A DNA stretch of 64,000 nt from a bacterium (GTDB lineage: Bacteria; Electryoneota; Electryoneia; Electryoneales; Electryoneaceae). Where the stretch lies: the NCBI GenBank assembly GCA_963669175.1, contig OY769902.1, forward strand, positions 5,383,366 through 5,447,365, read 5' to 3'. This document shows, in pieces, positions 3,214 through 64,000 of this stretch; positions within the stretch are counted from its first letter, which is position 1; the number at the start of each line of letters is the position of its first letter. A program made the translations under genes and the position numbers. Under the pieces are notes generated by a model that saw nothing but the letters and a program-made list of their open reading frames with translations, had not been told where the DNA came from and did no database searches.

Positions 3214-3386
3214 TTCTCATCGCCGTCAGGTCACACCGTGATGCCTGATGCTATGTATCATGTGAGATGACAAACGTGAAGTCGGACAGGTGTTTTAAAT
3301 TATGGATAGAAACAAAAAAACGGCATCACGTCAAGACCTGACGGAACACACTCGTCGATAGTATGCACAAATTCTTATAAGCAGCC
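3214..3386 (+). mobile_element. MITE-like element, 5'-truncated copy
   Basis: Matches the right half of the copies at 18752 and 61971 and ends in the terminal repeat ATGCACAAATTCTTATAAGCAGCC. Confidence 0.75.
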
Positions 3387-18531: not shown

Positions 18532-18751
18532 AGGTACTCCTTTGCGCTACGATGAAAGAAACATACTACTGAAACAGAATGGATGCAATATGGAGCTATC
18601 TCTAAAAAAAAAAAATATTTACAACTGGCTCAAAGGGAAAAATAAAAAGTCCGAAACGAGTCTGATCAGGCTTCTAATCTTTCTTAACAAACCTGAGACC
18701 TGATCATAACATTACAAATGTTGAAAAGTTCTTGTCTTTCGATTCAAGTTA

Positions 18752-19083
18752 GGTTCCACACAAGAATTTGTGCATCCGGGCAAAGTTGTGGCAGGTCTTG
18801 ACGCGACATTCCGTTTTCGGCTTTCGCAATGTATTTCTGAATGCACATGATACTGAAACCACCTCTCGTCCTGTTATTGTCGCGTTGTGACCTGCCACCG
18901 GTATCAGCATTCTCGCCGCCGTCAGGTCACAATGTGATGCCTGATGACGATTTATCATGCAAGAAGGCAAGTGTGAAGTCGGGAAGGTATCTGAAATTTC
19001 AGAAAGGAACAGGAAAATGGCATCACGCCAAGACCTGACGGAACCTGCTCGTCGATAGTATGCACAAATTTTTATGAGCAGCC
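18752..19083 (+). mobile_element. MITE-like element, full-length copy (~332 bp, ~24-bp terminal inverted repeats)
   Basis: Begins GGTTCCACACAAGAATTTGTGCAT and ends ATGCACAAATTTTTATGAGCAGCC; highly similar to 61971-62303; no transposase. Confidence 0.85.
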
Positions 19084-48695: not shown

Positions 48696-48928
48696 GACAG
48701 CTCACAAAAAATTGCTTAAACTATCGACGAGAATGTTTCGTCAGGTCTTGATGCGATGCCTTTTTCTTGTGTTTCACAGCAATTTCTGACAACGGGCCGA
48801 CTTCATACCTGCTATTTCGCATGATAGATTGTTATAAGGCATCACGTTGTGACCTGACGACGGCGAGAATACTGATACCAGTGACAGGTCACAACTTTGC
48901 CCGGATGCAAAAATTCTTGTGAGGAACC
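48696..48928 (-). mobile_element. MITE-like element, inverted and internally deleted copy
   Basis: Reverse complement of the family; ends ATGCAAAAATTCTTGTGAGGAACC; about 100 bp missing between two CACAAC direct repeats. Confidence 0.8.
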
Positions 48929-51086: not shown

Positions 51087-53258
51087 ATGAAACGCTCTGC
51101 CCACATTGCTGTTATTCTTGTTCTCCTCGTCACCATTCCATCATTCGCCCAGGACAGCCTCAACATTCACTCCGTTGATGCCCTGTTTGAGTCAGATGGA
51201 CCGGTTTCAGCTGTTGCTGTTCAATACCCTTACGCATACACCGGCATGACTTCCGGCAATTTCCGTGTGTTCGATATTACCGATCCACAGGATATTATCC
51301 CTGTAGGACGGTGTACGGTTCCACCTCGCGTATATGATATCGAAACCGATGGGAATTACGCTTTTGTTGGAACCCTTGATGATCATATCCGGGTGGTAGA
51401 TATCAGTGATCCGGCTTCCCCTCACGAGGTAGCGGTGTATGATTTTCCCGGTACATGGGACCAGGTAGTCGCCATGCAACTTGACCCGGAACAGGATATT
51501 CTCCACGTCTGCATGTTGGGTGTGAATTATACAGCGCTGGATGTTTCTGACCCGCTCAACATCAGTCTGATCGGGTATACATCTGTCAACCGAACCTATT
51601 GTTATGACATCGCTGTTGACGGAGATTACGTATACCTGGCCGCCTTTACCGATGGTCTGATTGCGGTTGATATCAGCGACCAGGAACACCCGGAAGTTGT
51701 TGACCAGATCAATACCAACGGATACGCCTACCGGTTGGCTTGTGGTGGTGGCTACATATGGGTTGGCAATCACTACGGCAGCATTGTCGGAGCGCCAACT
51801 CAAGACCCATCAAACCTCAACCTGGACGCCAGTTATTACACCGGGTTCTCCGCCATTATGGGACTGGTATGGCATGATGATATGCTGATTCCATCATCAT
51901 CGGAAGCAACCATGTTTCTCGATGTTTCCGAACCTGCCAGCCTGCTTGAGCTTTCCACATATGAACCGGATTTTATTACCAACCGTTGGCATGTATATAA
52001 CGACAGTATGGCTGTCGTGGAATCCTATCGTGACGGCATCCATATTGTTGATTTCGGGACACCTTCCGGGCCTGTAGATCTGGGCACAGACAACACTTGC
52101 GGCGCTGTGTACAGCATGGTCAGCATGGGCGATTCACTGCTTGTTTGCCACGGTGGTCTGGGGAATGATGGCCCGGAAGTGACCCTGATTGATATCTCTG
52201 ATCCTAATGCCCCGGTTGTATGTGAAAATGTTGGAAGCTTTTTCTTCAACATGAGTACACGCATGGCGGACAACAAACTGTTGGCGCCTCGTTATGGCGA
52301 TGGCTTTGAAATCTATGAATACACGAACGAGAATACGCTGGAGCTTATTTTTCAGGATACAACCTGCTATGGACGCAGTCTCTCAATGTCGGATACGCTG
52401 CTTGCCTGCGCCTGCGGGGATGAGTACACGTTCCGGTTGTATGACATGTCTGAACCGGAAGCCCCCACCCTGCTTACCACTCACAATGTTTCCTATATCG
52501 CGTATGATGTCGTGATTCAGGGGGACTATCTGTACGTGGTCACGACGAACAGCATGATCATTTTCGACATTACTGATCCCACCGCTCCGATTGAAATGGG
52601 TTCATTTTCCGCAAACGGAAACTTTTCCGGGGTTACCTTAGCAGATTCGCTCGCTTACCTGGTGGATTATTCACACAATGGAATCTGGGCGCTCAATATT
52701 TCAGATCCTGATAATCCCGCATATCGTGATTACCTGTTCAATGGAGTAGATACCTATTACCCGGTTCTGGCTAATGACAATCGTATTATCCAGTTTGACG
52801 GTCCTGGCGGGGTGAAGGTGCTGGATGCTTCTGATCCGACAAACCTGACCGAGACTGGCTATTATGTCAAGCCGGGAGATTTTACCAACGGCGTCATCAA
52901 GAACGATATCCTGTACACGACTGATCTTGCCACCCTGTTGATCCTCGACTTGTCTGCCACCCCGGTTGAGACGGTACAAGAACAGGCCGTTCCGGTTGCT
53001 TTTGGTCTTGCTGATCCCTGGCCGAATCCCTTCAACAGCGTCACTCGTATCGGCTTCACCCTGCCACAAGCTTCCACGGTGAAGCTTACGGTTGTTGATA
53101 TCCTGGGACGCACGGTAGCGACTTTGCTGAACGATGACATCAGTCCGGGAACGCATCATGTCAGTTGGAACGCTGTAAATGTCGCCAGCGGAACCTACTA
53201 CCTGCGACTGGAAGCGCCGGATGGGATCAATATGAGGAAGGTTGTGCTGGTGAAGTGA
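51087..53258 (+). CDS. Secreted LVIVD-repeat (beta-propeller) protein with T9SS-type C-terminal domain
   Basis: Multiple V.D[IV]SDP..P repeats; C-terminal PWPNPFN...ASGTYYLRL...KVVLVK. Confidence 0.9.
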   Translation: MKRSAHIAVILVLLVTIPSFAQDSLNIHSVDALFESDGPVSAVAVQYPYAYTGMTSGNFRVFDITDPQDIIPVGRCTVPPRVYDIETDGNYAFVGTLDDHIRVVDISDPASPHEVAVYDFPGTWDQVVAMQLDPEQDILHVCMLGVNYTALDVSDPLNISLIGYTSVNRTYCYDIAVDGDYVYLAAFTDGLIAVDISDQEHPEVVDQINTNGYAYRLACGGGYIWVGNHYGSIVGAPTQDPSNLNLDASYYTGFSAIMGLVWHDDMLIPSSSEATMFLDVSEPASLLELSTYEPDFITNRWHVYNDSMAVVESYRDGIHIVDFGTPSGPVDLGTDNTCGAVYSMVSMGDSLLVCHGGLGNDGPEVTLIDISDPNAPVVCENVGSFFFNMSTRMADNKLLAPRYGDGFEIYEYTNENTLELIFQDTTCYGRSLSMSDTLLACACGDEYTFRLYDMSEPEAPTLLTTHNVSYIAYDVVIQGDYLYVVTTNSMIIFDITDPTAPIEMGSFSANGNFSGVTLADSLAYLVDYSHNGIWALNISDPDNPAYRDYLFNGVDTYYPVLANDNRIIQFDGPGGVKVLDASDPTNLTETGYYVKPGDFTNGVIKNDILYTTDLATLLILDLSATPVETVQEQAVPVAFGLADPWPNPFNSVTRIGFTLPQASTVKLTVVDILGRTVATLLNDDISPGTHHVSWNAVNVASGTYYLRLEAPDGINMRKVVLVK

Positions 53259-53538: not shown

Positions 53539-53806
53539 AATGTTGTGGCAGGTCTTGACGCGACATTCCGTTTTCGGCTTTTATAATGTTTTCCTGAATG
53601 CACAATAATATTGAAACCGCCTCTCGCCCTGTTTTTGTCGCGTTGTGACCTGCCACTGACATCTGTATTCTCACCGTCGTCAGGTCACAACGTGATGCCT
53701 TATGACAATCTATCATGCGAAATAGTAGGCTTGAAGTCGGACAGGTGTCTGAAATTGCGGTAAAAACAAGAAAAAGGCATCTCATCAAGACCTGACGAAA
53801 CCTGCT
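53539..53806 (+). mobile_element. MITE-like element, copy lacking both termini
   Basis: Matches the internal part of the family from ATGTTGTGGCAGGTCTTGACGCGAC to CAAGACCTGACGAAACCTGCT. Confidence 0.8.
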
Positions 53807-53810
53807 ATAA

Positions 53811-55598
53811 CTACTGTTCTGTCCGCATTTCGTCCAGTTCTTTGAGGCGTTTTACAATTTCCATATCACGCTGGAACAACTCCGGGCTACCGCTTTTGCG
53901 CAGTTGATCCCGGACTGTTTCACGCTCTTTCAATAACGCAGCCCGTTCAAAGTGCAATGCGGCAAACTCCACCGCTTGATTCGTGGATTGTTCATCCATG
54001 TCCATATCACGGTTCAGAATATCGTTCAGAATGGGCACCAAGCCGCTATTACCATTGAGGGAATCGTAGAGGTCCGCTTCATTGATCGTTTCGCCCTCCA
54101 CATGCGCTGCTTCCAGCACTTCGAACACTGGTCGCAACGGATGCTCGCCCATATCCGCCGCCCGGATATGGTTGAACACTTCGCCACGGCGTTCCGGATG
54201 ACGAATCAGTAACCACAGCAACGTCCGCACACCTTCTTCGAAACCGCTGACGACCTGCTGATCCGCGATCTGCTTGACCTGGCGTCCACGGTTGCCGCCA
54301 CGTCGTGACTTCTCCAACTCGCGTCCCAGTAATTGCTCGTCAATCCCCAGCTTTTCCGCAGCGTCATGCAGGTAGGCTTCACGTACAATCGCTTCCGGGA
54401 TGTTCTGTAGAGTTTCCACGATCGCTCGTGCGGCTTCCGCCTTGCCACGCGGGGTATCCAGCAATCCCTTACGGTGAAAATAGTTGACTTTGAAATCGAT
54501 GATAGGTTGCGCCTTGGTCAGCACGGCTTCCATCGATTCACGTCCGCCGGATTGGGCCAGCGAGTCTGGGTCTTCGCCTTCCGGCAACAACGCAATCTGG
54601 ACCTCCAGCCCGGCGCTGATCAGGATATCCGCCCCGCGAAACGCTGCGTTAACGCCCGCCTCATCACCGTCATACAGCAGGGTCGCGCGGTCGGCAAAGC
54701 GTTTGATCAAGCCCGCCTGCTCACGTGTCAACGCGGTTCCCAGTGAAGCAACCGCGTTACCAAAACCGACCATGTGCAGGGCAATCAGGTCGGTGTAGCC
54801 TTCGACCAGGATCGCTTCACGTGTGTTGCGCATCTCATCACGCGCCTGGGGCAGGCCGTACAGAGTTGATCCCTTGTGATAAATCGGGGTTTCCGGGCTG
54901 TTGATATATTTGGGTTGGGATTTCTCCTCGTCCTGACGCATGACACGTCCACCGAACCCGACCACACGCTTTCCGGCGTTACGGATAGGAAACATCAGGC
55001 GTTCACGGAAACGGTCATACCAGCCCCCGCGACCGCCACGAATCGCCAATCCTGCCGCCTCCAGGGTTTCACCGGTAAAGCCACGTTTCTGCGCCAGCTT
55101 AACCAACGTATCCCACCCCTCAGGACTCAAGCCCAGCTCGAATTTAGCTTCAAGCTCTTCGTCGATTCCACGTTTGCGCAGGTAATCCCGTGCCATCTTC
55201 GCCAGTTCGCTGTCGGTTTCGGTCAGCAGGTAGCGGAACAGCTTGTAGGCGCGTTCATTAGCCTGGTACAGGGCTTCGTTCTTCCCCGTAACCTTCTGAC
55301 CACCTTCACGGATCTCGATTCCGACTCGTTCAGCCAGTCGCCTCACCGCATCGGGAAACTCGATCCGTTCCACTTCCATCAGGAAGGTGAAGACATTGCC
55401 GCCCTTGCCACAGCCGAAACAGTGGAAGATCTGACGGTCAGGATTGACACTGAAGGAGGGGGTCTTTTCCTGGTGAAACGGACAGAGCCCGAAGTAGTTT
55501 ACGCCGCCCTTTTTCTTCAGGGAGACATATTCGCTGACCACTTCGAGAATATCGCTGCTTTCTCGGACCTGGCGGATGGTGTCTTCGGGTATTGCCAT
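53811..55598 (-). CDS. dnaG: DNA primase
   Basis: CPFH..KTPSF...FHCFGC zinc finger; FRERLMFPI; KYINSPET; TOPRIM motifs EGYTD and YDGDEAG; DPD. Confidence 0.98.
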   Translation of the reverse strand: MAIPEDTIRQVRESSDILEVVSEYVSLKKKGGVNYFGLCPFHQEKTPSFSVNPDRQIFHCFGCGKGGNVFTFLMEVERIEFPDAVRRLAERVGIEIREGGQKVTGKNEALYQANERAYKLFRYLLTETDSELAKMARDYLRKRGIDEELEAKFELGLSPEGWDTLVKLAQKRGFTGETLEAAGLAIRGGRGGWYDRFRERLMFPIRNAGKRVVGFGGRVMRQDEEKSQPKYINSPETPIYHKGSTLYGLPQARDEMRNTREAILVEGYTDLIALHMVGFGNAVASLGTALTREQAGLIKRFADRATLLYDGDEAGVNAAFRGADILISAGLEVQIALLPEGEDPDSLAQSGGRESMEAVLTKAQPIIDFKVNYFHRKGLLDTPRGKAEAARAIVETLQNIPEAIVREAYLHDAAEKLGIDEQLLGRELEKSRRGGNRGRQVKQIADQQVVSGFEEGVRTLLWLLIRHPERRGEVFNHIRAADMGEHPLRPVFEVLEAAHVEGETINEADLYDSLNGNSGLVPILNDILNRDMDMDEQSTNQAVEFAALHFERAALLKERETVRDQLRKSGSPELFQRDMEIVKRLKELDEMRTEQ

Positions 55599-55646: not shown

Positions 55647-55901
55647 TCAGGAGGATTCATTGTTTCGTTCACGTTGCCACCGGATTCCCCGCAAGCCCTC
55701 TTCCAGACGCGCTAAAGAGGTGCGGATCTCGGTCAGCGTGGCGCGGACATTCTCCGAGAGGAGGCTCAGCTCACGGCGTCCGGCCTTCGTGTCCTCGAGG
55801 TGCCTGATCTCTGAACGCAGCCTTCCATAGGCAAGCGCAACGGATACCAGCAGGGATCCGATCATGATGATGTCGCGGAGTGTAATGTCGATCAAGGTCA
55901 T
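55647..55901 (-). CDS. Small protein with an N-terminal TM helix and coiled coil (phage holin/hemolysin-like)
   Basis: Hydrophobic IIMIGSLLVSVALAYG followed by a heptad-rich helix ending LARLEE; typical architecture of phage lysis-region proteins. Confidence 0.55.
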   Translation of the reverse strand: MTLIDITLRDIIMIGSLLVSVALAYGRLRSEIRHLEDTKAGRRELSLLSENVRATLTEIRTSLARLEEGLRGIRWQRERNNESS

Positions 55902-55980
55902 AGGTTGCCTTTCGTGCATGTTGCTTTGTGGTGAAAATACGTGATAGTGAAGCGGTGTAATTCTTTGTTTTATTTAGAAT

Positions 55981-56038
55981 AGACCCCGCCGGACAGCCGC
56001 CTTCGCTTCGCTACGGCGTGCTTCAAGCCGGTGGGGCC
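55981..56038. repeat. Nested palindromic (REP-like) element
   Basis: Outer CCCCGCCGG/CCGGTGGGG stem enclosing CGCC-TTCGCTTCGCTAC-GGCG. Confidence 0.4.
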
Positions 56039-56140
56039 AATGTTTTGATTGTTTCTATTGATTAGTGACACTTCGAGAAACCCGCCTGCGTTGAGGATGA
56101 CATGAAAGCATAAAGCAGTCGAGCAGTGCTCTAGACGTTA

Positions 56141-56332
56141 TCAGTTGGCGCTTCCTGCTTGTCCTGTGTTTTTTGCGATACCATCACGGATGAACAGGGC
56201 CAGAACAGCCGGGATAATCATCTGAAGCGCTTCTGACAGCGTGGCGGAACCTGTGGCCACTTGTTCTGTTGCGGCAATTAGAGCAGCTACTGCCGCCCAG
56301 AAAGTTTTGGTACGAAACAGACGTTGAAACAT
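56141..56332 (-). CDS. Small two-TM holin-like protein
   Basis: LFRTKTFWAAVAAL...ALFIRDGIAK resembles the S.K/RxFW...F.R.G pattern of small phage holins; AAGG RBS. Confidence 0.6.
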   Translation of the reverse strand: MFQRLFRTKTFWAAVAALIAATEQVATGSATLSEALQMIIPAVLALFIRDGIAKNTGQAGSAN

Positions 56333-56379
56333 GAGAAATTCCTTTCTTCCGGATTGTTATTTCTTCAGAACGAAGAGTG

Positions 56380-58944
56380 TCAGCGACCGGAACGTGCCGG
56401 TTCGAGATAGGTTGGTTTCCTTATGCCAAAGCGGACTCTTCCCCACTGGGGACGTCGCCAGGCTTGCCCGGGAAGGTCAGCGGAAGGCAAAGCCCCTACC
56501 TGCCTGCCAGACGTTGACAGGTAGTTGCCCAGTGAAAAGGGCGGAAGATGATAGTCATCCTTGTCCGGGTCTTCGAATTTGAGGGTGAAGCAGGTCATGG
56601 CTTCCGAGTCACTCACACCTGAGGTATCTGCCATATTGCCGGAAAACAGGTTGAAGTGGTTATTCAGGCGCGCGCCATCGGCTATTGCATGGTTGATCAT
56701 TCCCGTCCCGGAAGAGGCCGCTATGATAGTGTTCTCGACAGTAACCGAACCCGTATCACCGGAACAGATTTCGATTGCGATGGGGTTATTGAAAAACGTG
56801 CATTGAGATACAGAGATACTGTCGGTTGACTGATGACCACCGACTTGCATCCCGGCATTATTATTTCCTGCCAACACACATTCAGAAAGAACCAGTTCCG
56901 TTCCATATCCTTCCGCACTGATACCATTGCCCGGAAAACCTGTGATGAGGAGATCTTTTACTGCCGGGGTGCAGACCTGGTCAATTGTTATTCCACTGTA
57001 TCCGGGTGGCAGGTTGCTCCCGTCGAGGGTTGTACTGAAAGCATCTATACCGGAAATGCTGAGTGATTTGCCAATCAATACCGGTTCATTGAAGGCGCCC
57101 GCTGCAATCTGCAAGGCATCATTCTCCCTGGCATAGTCCACCGCAGGCTGAATCGCCGCAAAACAGGCTTCCCCATACAGAATGGGATAGATCGTTTCCC
57201 ACAAAGCGTTATGTTCATGAAACGCAGCCTGAACACTTGGGCTGTCATAGTATTCCAGGAACGCAAACATTCCTCCTGTCAGATTGGTCATCCCCTGATC
57301 TGCGAACAAGGTCAGCGCTTTATCAACATCCACCTGGAACCAGTCCGAAATCGTGATGGATTTCAATTGCGGCAAGCTGTTATCCAGGCAGATTGCCATG
57401 GTGTCTGCGTTGCCGGTGATAGTCAGCAAGTGCCAGAATGTGTCATTATGCGGAATTTGAAGAACGCTGTCCTCTCCGGCGATAGATAGCGTAAGCTGTA
57501 TCAGGCTGTTGGTGTCATCACGGTACAGTATATATCCCTTGCTGTCGTTGGTTTTACTGAAGAGGTAACCAGAATCATCTTCACGCAGGCGGAATAACAT
57601 GCTGACCCGGAAATTCTCTGACCAGTCCAGGCTGTCTTCCAGGGAAACATCTACCTGCAACGCATCGCTGGTCCCATCACCACTCCAGGCATAACAGGGT
57701 TGTCCCAACACACTCCCCCTGATTTCATACGCGCCACCAGCCTGGTTTACAGCAAAACTGCACCCGCTACGAGAATACCAGCGGATGGAATCCGGCGATA
57801 CTGTCCACTGGCTTACGATTCTGCCCGGGTCCAGAAGGGAGGAGACAGCCAGGTAACCTGCGATCTCGTGCCAGGGTACTGCACAAGCGGAATTGATATC
57901 CCTGATTTCCTGTGATTCCGAACGGTAGACAACAAAGGGGCCGGTTGAAACCAGGTCAGGCTTTCTATCACCGGTTATATCTGTGATCGCTCCGCCATAA
58001 TTCACATTTCCAAACGGAAGCGCAACCCTGGTGAATTGTCCGTCTCCATCGTTCAGGAAAAGATCTTTCCCCGATGAATGATAGATATCAATATCATGGT
58101 CAGAATCAGCATCACCGGCGATGATATCACGCCCATATGTAGTCGTCGCCCCAACAACTGATCTTGTAAACGAGCCACTTCCATCATTGGTGAATTTTAT
58201 CAGATCAACACCCAGTACGGAAATAATATCTTTGTCCGCATCTCCGTCCACATCTTCTACGACAAGGGATTGCCCGAAAGAAGAAGCTCCGATCAAAGAA
58301 CGTGTAAAATTCTCCTCGCCATCGTTGAACGCCACAAACACATCAAGCGTACTCGACGAACCAAAGATGATATCCATGTCCTGATCACCGTCAATATCAT
58401 TGATTCTGATATCCCGCACCTGTTCCTGTCCGGTAAGAACAGTATCCTGAGTGAAGCTTGCGTCACCATTGTTCCTCAACCAGATAATGGGGTAATCATG
58501 GCTACGGTCATCATTGGGGCAAAGAATATCGAGATCACCATCGCCATCAAGATCGCCTGTACGTGCTCGAACTGGACGACTGATTCCCGAAGCGATCAGT
58601 AAACGCTCAAATGTGTCATCACCATTATTTTTGTACCAGTAGCAGGAGGACGTTTCCAAATCAGGAAAGAGGATATCCTTTTCGCCATCCTTATCCAGAT
58701 CCGTAATCGACACCTGGTTGCTTGAAACTTGGACAGGAAAGGCGAAAAGTTCTTCGAAACTGAATGAAGAGGTTTGCCTGTACACACCTTCTTTAAGTAC
58801 CAGGTCGGGTAGTCCATCGCCGGTAAAATCACAAGCTCCGAGGAAGATATCTCCGGCATCCAATACAAAGGGATGGTAGCGGACTTCACCTGCACAGAGA
58901 ACAGGCAGCAAGAAACACAGAATAATACAAAGCTGTTTTTTCAT
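56380..58944 (-). CDS. Secreted protein with FG-GAP/VCBS repeats, a LamG-like domain and a beta-helix
   Basis: Signal peptide; seven D.D.DG..D[IL]-type repeats; IQPAVD.A...D...I..G.F.E beta-helix cap; no T9SS-type C-terminal domain. Confidence 0.8.
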   Translation of the reverse strand: MKKQLCIILCFLLPVLCAGEVRYHPFVLDAGDIFLGACDFTGDGLPDLVLKEGVYRQTSSFSFEELFAFPVQVSSNQVSITDLDKDGEKDILFPDLETSSCYWYKNNGDDTFERLLIASGISRPVRARTGDLDGDGDLDILCPNDDRSHDYPIIWLRNNGDASFTQDTVLTGQEQVRDIRINDIDGDQDMDIIFGSSSTLDVFVAFNDGEENFTRSLIGASSFGQSLVVEDVDGDADKDIISVLGVDLIKFTNDGSGSFTRSVVGATTTYGRDIIAGDADSDHDIDIYHSSGKDLFLNDGDGQFTRVALPFGNVNYGGAITDITGDRKPDLVSTGPFVVYRSESQEIRDINSACAVPWHEIAGYLAVSSLLDPGRIVSQWTVSPDSIRWYSRSGCSFAVNQAGGAYEIRGSVLGQPCYAWSGDGTSDALQVDVSLEDSLDWSENFRVSMLFRLREDDSGYLFSKTNDSKGYILYRDDTNSLIQLTLSIAGEDSVLQIPHNDTFWHLLTITGNADTMAICLDNSLPQLKSITISDWFQVDVDKALTLFADQGMTNLTGGMFAFLEYYDSPSVQAAFHEHNALWETIYPILYGEACFAAIQPAVDYARENDALQIAAGAFNEPVLIGKSLSISGIDAFSTTLDGSNLPPGYSGITIDQVCTPAVKDLLITGFPGNGISAEGYGTELVLSECVLAGNNNAGMQVGGHQSTDSISVSQCTFFNNPIAIEICSGDTGSVTVENTIIAASSGTGMINHAIADGARLNNHFNLFSGNMADTSGVSDSEAMTCFTLKFEDPDKDDYHLPPFSLGNYLSTSGRQVGALPSADLPGQAWRRPQWGRVRFGIRKPTYLEPARSGR

Positions 58945-59225
58945 TGTGTCTCCAGACTATCAGGTTCAGGAACCTGGATCAGGGGTGGGCTATCCCATGA
59001 CTGAGCAAGGTGATACGCTTCAGCATCTGACAGCAGCATGATTGCTGTATCTCCTCCGGCGATGGCAAACAGTGAATCCGCGTTCCCGAATCCAGATTTG
59101 ACCAGGACGGTATCCTGCCAGACTCGTGGCTGTCCCCAGCCATTGTGGGAGACAGCAAGCCAGTGGTTTTCCAGCATCATCGCGTACCAGATCATAAGCA
59201 GGACGGGTATGATCCTCCCCTTCAT
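58941..59225 (-). CDS. Small hypothetical exported protein
   Basis: ATGA overlaps with both neighbours; hydrophobic N-terminus. Confidence 0.55.
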   Translation of the reverse strand: MKGRIIPVLLMIWYAMMLENHWLAVSHNGWGQPRVWQDTVLVKSGFGNADSLFAIAGGDTAIMLLSDAEAYHLAQSWDSPPLIQVPEPDSLETQ

Positions 59226-59779
59226 CGCACCCTCCACATATCACATTTCACCACCGCAGTATCGTCAGAAGCGACAACCAGACGAATCCAGCCACCACCA
59301 TAGACGGGTATCGGGATTATCTGCCCAATTGTTGATTTGATCGGGCTGCTGTCAGGGACAAGCTCCAGCGACCCATCACGCTGTTCATAGACGACGCCGG
59401 TAGTGTCACTCAGGGCTATCTGGGCAGAAATGGTGATTTCCGGTCCACTGTCAGCAATGCCACCGGATGTGTCGGCATGAACGAAAAGGGTGAATCGGGT
59501 AGGCGCGTAAATTCGCTCATCCGCCAGATCCGCGATATGCGTACCGAACGGCAACCAGGCGGTCGTATCTGTTTCCGCACGGAGAGTGTCGTTCAGAAGT
59601 GTGGTAACTCGTGCCAGACGTTCGCCCTGAAGCAACCCTTCCGACGTGCCCCAGGTCTGCGCTCGGGCCGGTACTGAAAATGAAAACAAAGGCCAACAGG
59701 TGGCGACGGTGAATACGGAAACACTGAACAGCAAAAACCAACCAGACGGTTTGTGTTTTCTTCCTGCACTCTTTCTCAT
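59222..59779 (-). CDS. Hypothetical secreted beta-rich protein
   Basis: AGGAG RBS; signal peptide ending ARA-Q; beta-strand pattern. Confidence 0.7.
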   Translation of the reverse strand: MRKSAGRKHKPSGWFLLFSVSVFTVATCWPLFSFSVPARAQTWGTSEGLLQGERLARVTTLLNDTLRAETDTTAWLPFGTHIADLADERIYAPTRFTLFVHADTSGGIADSGPEITISAQIALSDTTGVVYEQRDGSLELVPDSSPIKSTIGQIIPIPVYGGGWIRLVVASDDTAVVKCDMWRVR

Positions 59780-59844
59780 GGCTTACTCCTATACAAATGT
59801 TCAATTGTCCAGATAAAAAAATGCTGACATCCATAACCAGTTCA

Positions 59845-60570
59845 TCAAATCCCGGATCGTAAAGAAGCTGTATATCGTTTACCACGCCACTTCAATCGAA
59901 TGATCCTGTTTTCCGGACCTTCCTGTCTGGAATTCGAATTCTGCTGCAAATGGGATTTAGGGACAGTGTTTCCGGCATCCAGTTCGAAGCCCGTTCCCGG
60001 CGCAGCGCCACGGTAAACCAGCGATCCCTCGGTAACACGTTCGATCCCATCATACCAGTAAAAACAAAGCTTGCCGTCATATTCCCGTCCCGGCCAATGC
60101 GAACAACTGCGCAGATCTTCACCACAGATGGAGCAGGTGGGATGGTTGTACATGAAGGCGATGGACGCTTCGTTGTAAACCCCGCTGTCGATCATGATAC
60201 GCAGGTCTTCGGCCTTCGAATGGGCGCGTGGCCAGTAGAAACGCGGAACCAGCCATGTTACTTCACCACGCTTTTCCACCGCGCCATCGAAAAAACGCGC
60301 CACTCCAAGGCTCCTGCGATCATGGCCGATCAGCACCGGGGCGCCCTGCACCAGCTCGAGCAATTTGTGGAGATCCTCTGTGCGGAAGCGTCCGAACCGG
60401 CTGTCAATAGCATCGCAAGCCAGTCTGCAACGACGCACGTGCAACTCTTCCGCATCCAGTTTGACCAGTGGTGGGTTATCGAGATTGTGAATCGCCTCAA
60501 TGTCCTGTTCACTGACCTTGCAAGGTTCACGCAACAATGCGCCGGTTAATCCCTGTGAAAGCATACTCAT
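59845..60570 (-). CDS. Phage prohead (maturation) protease-like protein
   Basis: PVLIGHD His motif, EASIAF, CSICG...C.H.PG..Y.G..C zinc insert and EGSLV Ser motif; coupled to the portal gene by an ATGA overlap. Confidence 0.75.
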   Translation of the reverse strand: MSMLSQGLTGALLREPCKVSEQDIEAIHNLDNPPLVKLDAEELHVRRCRLACDAIDSRFGRFRTEDLHKLLELVQGAPVLIGHDRRSLGVARFFDGAVEKRGEVTWLVPRFYWPRAHSKAEDLRIMIDSGVYNEASIAFMYNHPTCSICGEDLRSCSHWPGREYDGKLCFYWYDGIERVTEGSLVYRGAAPGTGFELDAGNTVPKSHLQQNSNSRQEGPENRIIRLKWRGKRYTASLRSGI

Positions 60571-61859
60571 TCCTTTCCCTGTCGATACGCTTTTTCATAC
60601 CCGAGCTCGCGTGCGCCCTGATCACGGCTGATATAACCTTCCTGCACCATCTTGTCCACACGTTCAAACGCCATCAGCGCGGCACGGTTGCGTTCCACAA
60701 CGAACGGATCCTGGTTGGGCTCAAACCGCCAGCGCGCACCGGCCATATTCCCGGCCAAACGCAATTCAAAGTGCATCAACCATTCAGCAAGATCAGAGCC
60801 CAATTGTTGGACAGAATCAACAATTTGCATCAGCAGATTGTACTGTGCATATACCCAGTTCTTGGTAGTGCCGTGGCTACGTCCCAATGCCCAGGGAAAC
60901 AGCTTCAGCCCGGTAATAACATCTTCGATAACCTGTTCCCGATTCAGTTTCCATGATCCCTGCATATCCGACCCAGCGCCGATCACTTTCACTTCGATAT
61001 CGGACCAGGTGAACAGGTTGTCATCCGGGCCAAGCTCGTTGAATTGCGATACGGTCCGGTCGAAATACGAATTGATTCGTTGGGAGTAGGTATCCGGATC
61101 TTCACCGGGATTGGGCTCGGGCGGGGAAATTCGGATTTGCAGGCGTGGAGTACCTGCATTGTGGCTGGCCCGTGCCATGTCTTCCAGCATCCGTTGCTCG
61201 ATTTCAATCACGAACGGAATAGACGCCAGTGGTTCAATCCCTCCGGGCGCACGTAAATCGGACACCAGCGTCCGATGAAAGAATGTGTCCGGATCGATGG
61301 GTTCAAGTTCGTGGTCTTCGGTTTCCAGGTATGGCAGGAATCGACCGTCACGGCTGCGCGCCCAGTGAATACGGTAAGGATCAAGCAGTTCCAGGTGACT
61401 CACCCCAGACGCATCAGGCAGCAATACCACACGAGCGGCAAAGGCGCCAAGGGTGAAAAGTTCAAGAAAAAAGCTCTCCGTCAGGCGGGTCAAGCCGTGA
61501 GTTTCACCGTCAAGACGCGGGTATACCCTGCGGTCCAATTCATCAAGAAGCTGATTAGCCCGACGCACATCCCACTCATCCCCGGTGATCTCGTAGCGTT
61601 GCGCGGTCGAACAGAGATGACTCCAGGTCCAGATTCCGGATGAGATGATGGGGATATGATCACGCAGGTAACGGTAGAAATCGGCGCGATTCGTCCCGGT
61701 ATAACTGAATCCTTCCGCCGGGGTGGCAAAGGTGAATGGCCCACTGGCAGCTCGACGAGGGGTACTCCACCGGTTTCGTACCAGTCCAACACGTTGCTGA
61801 CGTTCCGGCAATGTTATCGGCTGCCGCCCCAACATCTTGTTGATCACAGTTCGAAGCAT
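60567..61859 (-). CDS. Phage portal protein
   Basis: 430 aa between terminase and protease; GTPRLQI, EQVI...LKLFPWALG and C-terminal G.IS.DQ.ARELGY portal-like motifs. Confidence 0.75.
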   Translation of the reverse strand: MLRTVINKMLGRQPITLPERQQRVGLVRNRWSTPRRAASGPFTFATPAEGFSYTGTNRADFYRYLRDHIPIISSGIWTWSHLCSTAQRYEITGDEWDVRRANQLLDELDRRVYPRLDGETHGLTRLTESFFLELFTLGAFAARVVLLPDASGVSHLELLDPYRIHWARSRDGRFLPYLETEDHELEPIDPDTFFHRTLVSDLRAPGGIEPLASIPFVIEIEQRMLEDMARASHNAGTPRLQIRISPPEPNPGEDPDTYSQRINSYFDRTVSQFNELGPDDNLFTWSDIEVKVIGAGSDMQGSWKLNREQVIEDVITGLKLFPWALGRSHGTTKNWVYAQYNLLMQIVDSVQQLGSDLAEWLMHFELRLAGNMAGARWRFEPNQDPFVVERNRAALMAFERVDKMVQEGYISRDQGARELGYEKAYRQGKE

Positions 61860-61944
61860 ATTTTCCTCTTTCTTAGTTTGAAAGTTGGAAAGTTTAAAAG
61901 TTCTAAAGTTATTGATTAATGAAATAGGAACTCTTTGGTTAGTT

Positions 61945-61970
61945 CATTCTTAATTCTTAATTCTTAATTC
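61945..61970. repeat. Heptamer tandem repeat (TTAATTC)n flanking the MITE
   Basis: CTTAATTCTTAATTCTTAATTC immediately left of the element; TTAATTCTTAATT resumes at about 62305. Confidence 0.7.
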
Positions 61971-62303
61971 GGTTCCTCACAAGAATTTGTGCATCCGGGC
62001 AATGTTGTGGCAGGTCTTGACGCGACTTTCCGTTTTCGGCTTTCGCTATGTTTTCCTGAATGCACGATAATACTGAAACCACCTCTCGTCCTGTTATTGT
62101 CGCGTTGTGACCTGCCACCGGTATCAGCACTCTCGCTGTCGTCAGGTCACAACGTGATGCCTGATGACGATCTATCATGCGAAATAGCAGGTGTGAAGTC
62201 GGACAGATATCTGAAATTGCGGAGAAGAACAAGAAAAAGGCATCACGTCAAGACCTGACGAAACCTGCTCGTCGATAATATGCACCAATTCTTGTGAGCA
62301 GCC
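61971..62303 (+). mobile_element. MITE-like element, full-length copy between the terminase and portal genes
   Basis: Begins GGTTCCTCACAAGAATTTGTGCAT and ends ATGCACCAATTCTTGTGAGCAGCC. Confidence 0.85.
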
Positions 62304-62320
62304 TTTAATTCTTAATTGTG

Positions 62321-63757
62321 TTAAATTGGCGCTTTCCGTTCCGGTGGCGGCATCCCTCCTACCCGGGCGGCGACCTGTGGACGCGGGTGTGCTGAGGTAT
62401 ACAGATTCACCAGCAGGTAGCGCAGGGCGTCCATGGGATGATCATGTTCGCCATCCTTGACCGGAGTTTCGCCATCCGGCCCCCAGGCATATCCCTGAAA
62501 ACCACGAACCACCGCGCCGCAATGCTTGTAAACCTTTAACCGGACTTCACCAGAAGCATCCTTCAACAACGCCCGCACAACCTCAATTCCCGCCGCAATC
62601 GACGATGGACGCCAGACCAGTTTGAAACCGGCCGCCTGGAGATGTTCCACCGGCGAGATGCCCATATCGGTCTTTGCCGCACCGGCCGGATCGACGGCTG
62701 TCCAGGTGATGTCGCGTTCACTCAGACCATGTTTCGCATCGATTCGACGAATCTCCTGCACCAGTTGATCCAAAGGCCAACGATCACCGACGAGGCTGTC
62801 GAATACGGTCAGGTTATTGCATGTATCACGTTCCAGCCAGATCACCGCTGGACGACGGTATCCGAAATCGATCCCGCGGTAGAAACGTGTTCCGCTGTCC
62901 GCTCCGGGCGCTGCATAAGGTCCGTCAACCAGGTGAGTCGAAGATTCGAACTGATCATACACACGTCCTTCGGCGCCTTCGAAGCTGAGTTCTTGTTCAC
63001 GTCGCCAGCGTGCTTCGGACAAACCTGCGCGTGCACGGGTTTCCCAGTTTTCATCGCGTCCGGGGAAGTCGTTGTAGTGCATCCGGTGAACGTGAAATTC
63101 GCCTGCGCTGTCATGCACCAGCCTGCCAAACACACCGACAGGTCCATTTGGGGTGGATACCCCGACAAACTGGCCGCCCGCATCGACAGCCGGTTTGACC
63201 GCCGCCCAGATTTCCTCATCGTTAGGCGCGAAAGCCATCTCATCCCAGAAAACAGTCTGCGGACTGAGACCACGCACCGCATGTGGCGAGGCCGGAAGGC
63301 TGACAATGCGACTTTGCAGCGACGGGAAAGACACTGTCCCGGCCAGGAACTTCGGCTTCTCGTCCACCGGAAACACTTCATGAAATTCCCAGAGAAACTG
63401 GATACGTGCGATCAGTTCACGCGCGGACCGTTCCTCCTTGGACAACACCAGGTGCATGCCCGGCCCACGTGAAACCGCGCGATACAGCAAATACGCACAC
63501 CCTATCCAACTCGCCATCAATTGACGGCTTTTTACGACGACCAGGCGATTTTGCGTGGCGTAAGCGCTGGCAAGTTTGCGCACAAGCGGCCAGTCCGGAA
63601 TCAAACGGGGTCCATCATGCCCGGGATCAAAGGTTCGGCATTGGAACAGGAAGTCCAGGAATCCGTTTTCATCTGCAGTTTGTTTCTTTCCAGACACGAT
63701 TTCTCCCTGTTTACCATCCGGTGATATTGGCTGGATTACCCTTTCGAACCGGTTCAC
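62321..63757 (-). CDS. Phage terminase large subunit
   Basis: Walker A-like KSRQLMASW, Walker B VFWDEMAF, motif III STPNG, nuclease GIDFG and HDHPMDALRY. Confidence 0.9.
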   Translation of the reverse strand: MNRFERVIQPISPDGKQGEIVSGKKQTADENGFLDFLFQCRTFDPGHDGPRLIPDWPLVRKLASAYATQNRLVVVKSRQLMASWIGCAYLLYRAVSRGPGMHLVLSKEERSARELIARIQFLWEFHEVFPVDEKPKFLAGTVSFPSLQSRIVSLPASPHAVRGLSPQTVFWDEMAFAPNDEEIWAAVKPAVDAGGQFVGVSTPNGPVGVFGRLVHDSAGEFHVHRMHYNDFPGRDENWETRARAGLSEARWRREQELSFEGAEGRVYDQFESSTHLVDGPYAAPGADSGTRFYRGIDFGYRRPAVIWLERDTCNNLTVFDSLVGDRWPLDQLVQEIRRIDAKHGLSERDITWTAVDPAGAAKTDMGISPVEHLQAAGFKLVWRPSSIAAGIEVVRALLKDASGEVRLKVYKHCGAVVRGFQGYAWGPDGETPVKDGEHDHPMDALRYLLVNLYTSAHPRPQVAARVGGMPPPERKAPI

Positions 63758-64000
63758 TCAACAAGGGTTGAGTCAGGAAACGAGCGAGCGTGGCAGACGC
63801 TTTTGCCTGGTACCGTTGGGAAAGCTCCATGAAGCGCCTGGAACGGTCATCCGCCCCGGCATCGGTAGCGCTGAGTGACTGAATCGCAAGGGCATCCAGA
63901 ACGATAGACAAGGCCAGCTCTGTTGCGCCTGTTACCAACCCCTGGTCATCCGATTCAGTGGGTGTACCCTTCACGCAGGCGCGCGGCGATCTTGTCCTCA
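63711..64000 (-). CDS. Hypothetical helical protein upstream of the terminase, possibly a head-tail connector; start lies outside the window
   Basis: Frame is open to the window edge; helical ELALSIVLDAL...LSQRYQAKA..TL pattern; overlaps the terminase start. Confidence 0.45.
   Translation of the reverse strand, partial: RTRSPRACVKGTPTESDDQGLVTGATELALSIVLDALAIQSLSATDAGADDRSRRFMELSQRYQAKASATLARFLTQPLLSEPVRKGNPANITGW

Follow-up and report, generated by a model that had tools for sequence, protein, structure and literature searches.

Domesticated phage devices are known either as whole particles, the gene transfer agents (GTAs), or as headless tails, represented by tailocins and contractile injection systems. 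The alphaproteobacterial Rhodobacter capsulatus GTA (RcGTA) encodes its own tail, head spikes and small terminase subunit (TerS). PBSX, an example of a defective prophage or phage-like particle, combines a full tail with genes for lysis, and its occurrence is limited to a single species and its close relatives. Phage-inducible chromosomal islands that form capsids (cf-PICIs) are described as mobile islands of 10-18 kb with an integrase, a replication module, TerS and HNH, present as identical copies across species, and as releasing tail-less DNA-filled capsids that are later joined to foreign tails (10.1101/2025.02.11.637232). Here we describe an array of phage head and DNA-packaging genes in a bacterium of the candidate phylum Electryoneota (NCBI Candidatus Electryoneota, FCB group). 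The array reaches the end of the 64,000-nt stretch of DNA that was analysed (hereafter, the window), which makes up the final 64 kb of one contig of 5,447,365 bp (OY769902.1), and whatever lies beyond base 64000 is found at the contig start.

With moderate confidence, we interpret this array as an ancient domesticated head and packaging module of a tailed phage, inherited vertically as a host locus (a "viriform") and a candidate for a GTA-like system without a tail. A previous inspection of the letters without database searches (hereafter, the sequence-only reading) had proposed a long-resident, possibly domesticated packaging system, and the results presented below support that proposal. The interpretation relies on the identities of the genes, of which that of the protease is less firm, on their retention throughout the phylum, on divergence in step with the host and on purifying selection. 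A head-only gene set retained phylum-wide is probably a working virus-derived device, and possibly a GTA of a new kind, since it has been inherited as host genes across the whole phylum.

Like RcGTA-type elements, the module is a phage-derived cluster residing as a host locus, vertically inherited over a deep clade and under purifying selection; it likewise has no integrase or replication genes and is split over several loci in some lineages. It differs from RcGTA in having no recognised tail gene or TerS and in the position of the capsid block, which precedes the block of the large terminase subunit (TerL). With cf-PICIs it shares the capsid, portal, adaptor and TerL genes, a probable protease gene, an adjacent regulator and the lack of a tail module, but it has no recognised integrase, replication module, TerS or HNH, is vertically inherited and is fragmented by host genes in some lineages. 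The cf-PICIs are the closest functional precedent. Similarly to PBSX, it is a phage-derived chromosomal locus under putative repressor control, and the XkdF-type Peptidase_S78_2 family is distantly linked, via a homologue from a gut bacterium, to p241, the candidate protease of the array. It does not resemble an intact or recent prophage, being near-universal in the phylum and having no detectable integrase, tail or lysis genes, although a pair of XRE and ImmA genes is present.

The open reading frames (ORFs) of the window were identified by matches to Pfam and PHROGs. In the order of the array, from the contig start into the window, the features are as follows; the genome of the window is designated G000, and other G numbers denote genomes of relatives in the same phylum.

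Contig start, after p145, same strand as the module: p124, a 124-aa ORF, the leading gene of the array in the window's family.
Contig start, beyond the capsid gene, same strand: p145, a 145-aa ORF with a weak match to the virion structural protein phrog_4588 (1.2e-4).
Contig bases 2-484, same strand: N-terminal 161 aa of the HK97-fold major capsid protein (MCP), phrog_3922 (9.2e-17), open at the contig start.
Window positions 63711-63998, minus strand, open at the window end (64000): fragment of the adaptor X, its C-terminal third, matching the last ~95 residues of the X family.
62321-63757, minus strand: TerL, a 478-aa ORF, Terminase_6N (3.3e-6) and phrog_2 (1.7e-30).
About 61971-62303, no strand assigned: a repeat of ~335 bp resembling a miniature inverted-repeat transposable element (MITE), within the 461-nt spacer between TerL and portal.
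60567-61859, minus strand: portal, 430 aa, phrog_3753 (1e-33).
59845-60570, minus strand: p241, a 241-aa ORF, prohead-protease-like, phrog_16951 (3.8e-25), a PHROG of unknown function.
59222-59779, minus strand: p185, a 185-aa ORF with an N-terminal hydrophobic segment (residues 14-32).
58941-59237, minus strand: a 98-aa ORF with no homologue in 81 related loci.
56380-58944, minus strand: an 854-aa exported protein with an N-terminal hydrophobic segment, FG-GAP_3 (4.8e-28) and Beta_helix (3.5e-5).
56141-56332, minus strand: p63, a 63-aa ORF with one hydrophobic segment.
55647-55919, minus strand: p90, a 90-aa ORF with an N-terminal hydrophobic segment (residues 7-25), the last gene of the array in the window's family, ending 49 nt before dnaG.
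53811-55598, minus strand: dnaG, Pfam Zn_ribbon_DnaG (2e-37), DNAG_N (2e-39) and Toprim.
Contig start, beyond p124, divergent from the array: an XRE/HTH_3 repressor (Pfam).
Contig start, near the repressor, divergent: a 161-aa ORF with no homologue in the 81 loci.
Contig start, following the repressor in this genome, divergent: Peptidase_M78 of the ImmA/IrrE type (Pfam).

The co-oriented minus-strand order of adaptor, TerL and portal, followed by dnaG, had been recognised from the letters and was borne out by the Pfam and PHROGs matches.

To find out how widely the module is distributed, its genes were sought in the 79 species genomes of the phylum in our collection. TerL was detected in 68 of them, the portal in 66 and the MCP in 70; among the 51 genomes with a completeness of 90% or more and no more than 5% contamination, the corresponding counts are 46, 46 and 47. 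All three genes occur together in 62 of the 79 genomes. One or two are absent in 11, mostly fragmented assemblies, and none was found in six (G007, 87% complete; G037, 97%; G043, 94%; G058, 83%; G062, 65%; and G068, 87%). The matches are mostly single and their frames open. Presence in relatives had been named by the sequence-only reading as a point to check, and close and distant relatives alike carry the module. A duplication was seen in G044 of family f3, where two TerL and two portal copies lie on contigs C20 and C242; one of the portals, on a short contig, is 68% identical to that of the window, as is usual in family f1, which includes G000. The resemblance of this extra portal to family f1 suggests that the second copies came by bin contamination or transfer. 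As regards the naming of these genomes, the metagenome-assembled genome (MAG) of Ca. Electryonea clarkiae (G003) is a member of the window's family, and several MAGs of the phylum bear ill-fitting submitter labels such as Calditrichaeota, LCP-89, KSB1, "uncultured Alphaproteobacteria" and "Caldithrix abyssi" DSM 13497 (a 2.8-Mb MAG).

The sequences diverge along with those of the host. TerL identity to the window's protein is 83% within the genus, 57-64% within the family and 38-46% in other families; the values for the portal are 82%, 60-70% and 48-57%, and for DnaG 80%, 49-60% and 37-45%. Conservation within the set is highest for the MCP, with 56-77% identity across the phylum and a mean column identity of 70%. 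The conservation of TerL, portal and MCP equals or exceeds that of DnaG. Phylogenetic trees of TerL and DnaG were constructed for the same 26 genomes (IQ-TREE quick search, LG+G4), and each recovers all five multi-member families with values of 99-100 in the Shimodaira-Hasegawa-like approximate likelihood ratio test. Within family f1 both trees contain the groupings G000+G001, G002+G012 and G005+(G011+(G013+G014)), with similar branch lengths. The comparison of TerL with the host tree, proposed in the sequence-only reading, thus gave the same family clades as DnaG. The ratio of nonsynonymous to synonymous substitution rates (dN/dS, Nei-Gojobori, NG86), also suggested there, is low: in the least saturated pair, G013-G014 (dS 0.33-0.59), it amounts to 0.094 for TerL and 0.079 for the portal, as compared with 0.051 for DnaG. 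In the remaining pairs dN/dS is 0.05-0.20, with dS near or past saturation.

The extent of the conserved unit was determined by local profile searches over 81 related loci, in which duplicates are included, some genomes having been taken by two routes. Homologues were found for X in 70 loci, Y in 64, MCP in 57, p145 in 55, p241 in 45, p185 in 23, p90 in 15, XRE in 14, p124 in 13, p63 in six and ImmA in three, those of p63 being confined to the window's family; the 854-aa, 98-aa and 161-aa ORFs had homologues in none of the 81. An all-against-all clustering of 23 loci from six families yielded no additional conserved gene, the other cross-family clusters consisting of shadow ORFs inside core genes or of type IX secretion system (T9SS) and LVIVD proteins. 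Because the profile counts and the clustering gave no further conserved gene, we take the core to be eight predicted genes in the order p145 - MCP - Y - X - TerL - portal - p241 - p185. The window's family adds the 124-aa gene in front, p63 and p90 behind, and the divergent XRE repressor. The 854-aa and 98-aa genes (56380-59237) are, judging from their distribution, an insertion peculiar to this lineage. The claim that the module contains three exported proteins accordingly holds for the 185-aa protein, and the other two belong to the insertion. The idea that the 854-aa FG-GAP/beta-helix protein might belong to a tail or nozzle was considered and rejected in view of its N-terminal export-type segment and its lack of homologues in all 81 loci. 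Each of the 63-aa and 90-aa products, previously called holin-like, does have a hydrophobic segment; nothing further supports the holin label.

The array is interrupted by the ends of the contig. In relatives, the MCP gene (~355-360 aa) is followed by Y (~122 aa), X (~281 aa) and TerL; the contig start of G000 aligns to the middle of the MCP and the contig end to the last third of X, and homology runs up to both ends. By coordinate arithmetic, ~1.72-1.74 kb is missing at the junction relative to two family members. A 5,459-nt contig assembled from short reads (two runs) covers window positions 62235-64000 and extends 3,694 nt further. The short-read contigs of two runs lack one assembly base at 63960, which alters the frame of the adaptor fragment and is likely an indel error near the contig end. 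In contig bases 1-8000, the first 31-mer repeated in the genome is located at 1771-1808, and the assembly contains no second match to phrog_3922. Should the short-read contig end at the 1771-1808 repeat, the gap at the junction would be ~1.9 kb. A 257-aa "fusion" ORF that would span the junction, joining MCP residues 1-161 to the last ~95 adaptor residues, was dismissed as an artefact because of the short-read extension, the base at 63960, the 1771-1808 repeat and the absence of a second phrog_3922 match. Since this frame is judged an artefact, we think that the organism possesses complete genes for the capsid, Y and the adaptor, the contig being unclosed at this point; a true deletion in G000 is a possible alternative. 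The ~38-nt stretch at 1771-1808, situated between the 124-aa gene and XRE, contains the only recurring 31-mers in contig bases 1-8000.

The sequence-only reading had reported no integrase, att site, replication, tail or capsid gene between the module and dnaG. A capsid gene exists just past base 64000. Inspection of the sequence past this base revealed the MCP, p145, the 124-aa gene, XRE and ImmA/M78, after which come host T9SS cargo genes; no integrase, replication, TerS or tail gene was recognised there, and no complete prophage.

TerL homologues align from about residue 30 of the 478-aa ORF, and 18 sequences share the invariant residues K76 S77 R78 Q79, W171 D172 E173, G199 S201, D297, D356 and D439 H440 D443, which we take to be Walker-type ATPase, coupling and RNase-H-like nuclease motifs. 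None of 30 members of the p241 family matched a Pfam family; they share invariant H83, S136, C146, C149, C156 and H158, including a Cys3-His motif. The nearest named clusters in the ESM Atlas are Peptidase_S78/S77/S80 (0.91-0.93). A gut-bacterial homologue belonging to the same PHROG matches Peptidase_S78_2 narrowly short of the threshold (4.6e-5, with 23.9 bits where 24 are required) and also, at 7e-5, a PHROG annotated "head maturation protease"; its gene sits between those for the portal and MCP. HK97-type prohead proteases have a His/Ser catalytic pair, for which the invariant H83 and S136 are candidates. p241 is a probable prohead protease, as the sequence-only reading had named it, the assignment being made on indirect evidence.

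The adaptor X was modelled with AlphaFold for a full-length family member (30-sequence alignment, predicted local distance difference test, pLDDT, 86.7), and in the model a helix at the N-terminus is followed by a beta domain (residues 21-170) and, at the C-terminus, by three helices. When it was compared by VIA-align against 48,161 chains, the top neck protein was T4 gp13 (Z 9.0, root-mean-square deviation 3.4, 98 residues aligned), followed by the necks of phiCD508 (Z 8.4), Mu (8.1) and P74-26 (8.1), the portal-tail complex of cyanophage A4 (8.1), SU10 (7.9) and HK97 gp6 (7.6); the RcGTA virion chain 6tba_2A scored 6.6. Prenyl synthases are interleaved among the top rows, and a Z below ~13 can be generic for helical bundles. 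Because neck proteins recur among the top rows, X is predicted to be a gp6/gp15-like head-tail adaptor with an inserted beta domain, which would dock on the portal. The label "connector-like" given earlier to the truncated ORF was thus right, its homologues folding as a head-tail adaptor. In a Foldseek search with X, the beta domain alone was matched, to tail and receptor-binding proteins, with template modelling (TM) scores of at most 0.33, and profiles of X, Y and p241 gave nothing below E 0.09 against PDB sequences. Y models as a jelly-roll (pLDDT 88.7; best Z 5.8, phage cement protein Z 4.8), had no BFVD match at E <= 0.001 and may be a cement or decoration protein. p145 resembles small virion proteins and is possibly a decoration protein as well. 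p185, which follows p241 in 23 of the 81 related loci from several families, retrieved from the ESM Atlas unnamed, partly viral clusters alone, at 0.90.

The chromosomal surroundings of the module differ between lineages. The adjacency to dnaG, whose conservation had been suggested as a check, proved peculiar to this genome and is not kept even within the genus: the dnaG contig of the same-genus relative has no module gene in the 12 kb read, and elsewhere in the phylum dnaG is on another contig or 29-260 kb from the module. A linkage of dnaG to the module was therefore ruled out, and the gene is regarded as a neighbour only. In G009, the array end adjoins genes for a PAS protein and lysyl-tRNA synthetase. 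Host genes, frequently ones for T9SS/LVIVD cargo, interrupt the module in families f2, f5 and f6, where they separate X from TerL, TerL from portal, or portal from p241. TerL and portal are spaced by 16 kb (G025), 17 kb (G034) and 38 kb (G019), with the genes intact in all; in G016 and G039 the two genes are on separate contigs and both are likewise intact. No integrase or replication gene was recognised by Pfam or PHROGs in the array or its flanks, and the nearest of the ten tyrosine recombinases of G000 is 188 kb away, in agreement with the earlier statement that no integrase is nearby. Because separated module genes stay intact and the nearest integrase is so distant, the module is, as far as gene arrangement tells, no mobile unit.

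The MITE noted between TerL and portal is real. This repeat gives 85 BLAST high-scoring segment pairs in the genome, 70 of them at least 200 nt long, with 89-97% identity, and short-read depth climbs ~60- to 100-fold over it. Other copies in the window are at 3224-3386, 18749-19083, 48700-48895 and 53539-53806, one of which is immediately downstream of dnaG. Two of the MITE copies are traversed by spurious ORFs of 91 and 115 aa. Genes for T9SS cargo are found at window positions 51087-53258 and contig bases 3775-19763, so that they flank the module here and interrupt it elsewhere. A functional link between the module and the T9SS/LVIVD cargo was considered; the neighbourhood is probably due to chance, since at least 150 of 340 candidates in G000 match Por_Secre_tail and many are LVIVD beta-propellers.

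In the 81 related loci, no tail gene was detected within the array or next to it, and the G000 genome contains no match to Phage_sheath_1, PhageMin_Tail or Baseplate_J; a search for the T4_gp19 tube was uninformative, its control having given no match anywhere. Among five other well-assembled genomes with the module, a tape measure protein was matched in two and a sheath in two, and G013 and G069 had neither. These tail-family matches are remote from the module: the distance is 2 Mb in G021 and, for the sheath of G020 on the module's own contig, 424 kb, and in G025 they are on another contig. The negative results for tails should be given little weight, because Pfam also missed the portal, adaptor and protease of this module.

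The module may have a GTA-like function, in which random host DNA, in pieces too small to hold the module's own genes, would be packaged and transferred to recipient cells. The lack of recognised tail genes would set it apart from all GTAs described so far. Relief of the XRE repressor would lead to expression of the operon; the MCP would assemble on the portal, the protease would mature the shell, and TerL would fill it with DNA. The packaged DNA would probably be that of the host, taken up without sequence specificity because no recognisable TerS is present. The adaptor could close or extend the portal vertex, and the outcome would be a capsid that is filled with DNA and lacks its own tail; its release and its transfer to cells are likewise presumed. 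One could go further and hypothesise a vertically inherited "tail-less head" system, a mirror of tailocins, that releases shells of cellular DNA and represents a phylum-old class of GTA of independent origin; this stronger version is tentative, and we would at present rather doubt it than accept it. Delivery could then make use of borrowed tails of co-occurring phages, in the manner reported for cf-PICI capsids, or the capsids could serve as protected extracellular DNA for uptake.

Of the competing explanations, the best surviving, though unlikely, is that the module is a host-fixed relative of cf-PICI-like satellites, producing tail-less, DNA-filled capsids that rely on the tails of infecting or neighbouring phages; the role under selection would then be interference with phages, transduction or both, and not autonomous gene transfer. 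Its gene content is the cf-PICI packaging module (capsid, protease, portal, adaptor and TerL) minus TerS and HNH, and the regulatory pair of XRE and ImmA genes next to the array recalls inducible islands. A distantly related locus also speaks for this possibility. Part of the gut-derived record MT835508.1 ("Bacteriophage sp.", positions 8809-37735) is a piece of a bacterial chromosome with a compact head-only island, in which MarR is followed by TerS (Terminase_2) - TerL - portal - phrog_16951 protein - MCP - three small ORFs. The island is flanked by ABC transporters, ApbE, MCRA, TetR, MgtC, SpoU, L17 and RpoA genes, and many of the flanking genes are similar to housekeeping genes of G000. 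It shares with the module an MCP of phrog_3922 (~30% identity), a phrog_16951 gene, a related portal family, the housekeeping setting and the absence of tail and integrase genes in the 29 kb read. It differs in having the canonical gene order, a Terminase_2 TerS and a MarR regulator, and it is known from a single scaffold. Since this island keeps the canonical order, the arrangement in Electryoneota is best read as a rearrangement that placed the capsid block (p145-MCP-Y-X) before the TerL block (TerL-portal-p241-p185). Islands with head genes alone may thus occur beyond this phylum, and the one in the gut scaffold hints at a broader category that has so far gone unrecognised. The satellite explanation is opposed by the failure to find an integrase, replication module, TerS or HNH, by vertical descent in single copies across nine families, and by the dispersal of the genes in some lineages, which an excising element could not tolerate. 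Moreover, an adaptor preserved at 30-49% identity throughout the phylum would have to go on fitting the tails of changing phages.

It is considerably less likely that the module is an active co-speciating virus or mobile element, for example a small tail-less or helper-dependent one integrated once per genome. Searches for phage relatives bear on this explanation. Among GenBank phages, TerL matched 1,555 records, all below 60% identity and at most 29.6% among the matches listed; the portal matched six records (<=23% identity) and the MCP five unannotated "Bacteriophage sp." records (27.5-31.8% identity), MT835508.1 being one of the five. Of the 80 IMG/VR contigs kept from pattern-limited scans, six (6-10 kb, 40-47% TerL identity) carry the same module in the same gene order, and the other 74 (TerL <=35%) gave no profile match to portal, MCP, X, Y, p241 or p185. 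A pattern-limited IMG/VR scan with the MCP alignment retrieved a single locus, that of the module. A free phage carrying this gene set was thus not encountered among GenBank phages or in IMG/VR, nor does TerL nest among known free phages, a possibility raised in the sequence-only reading (identities of at most 30% in GenBank and at most 35% for IMG/VR contigs without the module). The six contigs classed as viral in IMG/VR could be taken to favour an active element, as could the variation of flanking genes between families, but these contigs, which are just 6-10 kb long and share the gene order, may be of chromosomal origin, and we consider them to be probably pieces of chromosomes from this phylum. 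The module is accompanied by no recognised integrase or replication gene, host genes split it in several lineages, and the branch lengths of TerL resemble those of DnaG. The match to TerL falls on two ORFs, a few hundred to ~2,000 bases apart, in many of the distantly related IMG/VR contigs, and these may reflect introns, inteins or frameshifts.

Equally improbable is an exapted protein shell with a role other than in DNA packaging, such as an encapsulin-like compartment. It would account for the MCP being the most conserved protein of the set (56-77%) and for the failure to find TerS. However, TerL with its invariant ATPase- and nuclease-type residues and the portal are kept together with the MCP in 62 of the 79 genomes, and the adaptor is co-retained. 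Encapsulins need no TerL, portal or adaptor. The least credible explanation, a decaying and functionless prophage remnant, could draw on the lack of detectable tail, lysis, integrase or replication genes, on the MITE and host-gene insertions inside the array and on the six genomes devoid of TerL, portal and MCP alike, but it is hardly compatible with open frames in 66-70 of the 79 genomes, conservation at or above that of DnaG and dN/dS of 0.08-0.09, as neutral loss would not spare eight intact genes phylum-wide.

The interpretation as a domesticated, vertically inherited packaging module has to be weighed against several observations that do not favour it. Some genomes have no match for one gene or another (11 of 79 for TerL, 13 of 79 for the portal), and genomes of one phylum are non-independent samples. 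The deep branching differs between the two trees, family f5 being placed differently in the TerL and DnaG trees with support of 92-93, and both are quick searches with 26 genomes. The MCP and adaptor genes are cut by the contig ends in G000, where their intactness is presumed. Co-transcription may be disturbed by the MITE that parts TerL from portal and may suffer from the ~2.9-kb insertion that parts p185 from p63. The GC content of the core is 55.3%, at the top of the range for 300 random windows of the same length (50.2 +/- 2.5%). Its tetranucleotide distance is no outlier, 11% of random windows being equally far or farther, so that of the host-like composition perceived by eye the tetranucleotide part stands and the GC part does not. 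No Terminase_2 match was found in G000, and no TerS or HNH family among the module ORFs; a divergent TerS among the small ORFs is possible. It is also possible that divergent or podovirus-type tail genes lie elsewhere in the genome. No lysin was recognised by Pfam or PHROGs among the window ORFs, and none of the sequencing runs listed was an RNA run containing the stretch of the window.

No report of this module was found, and the main texts of the MAG papers on the phylum contain no mention of terminase, prophage, gene transfer agent or capsid. In line with the statement of the sequence-only reading that no GTA was known in this lineage, none was found in the literature searched on the host phylum (FCB group). 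A selected head-and-motor module without a tail across a phylum would be a third kind of domesticated phage device, and it would add an independent case of virus-to-host exaptation in the FCB group. The finding also bears on virome catalogues, where six IMG/VR entries look like chromosomal head-only loci, as does at least one record deposited in GenBank as "Bacteriophage sp.", and on the exchange of DNA among uncultured bacteria of sediments and anoxic waters.

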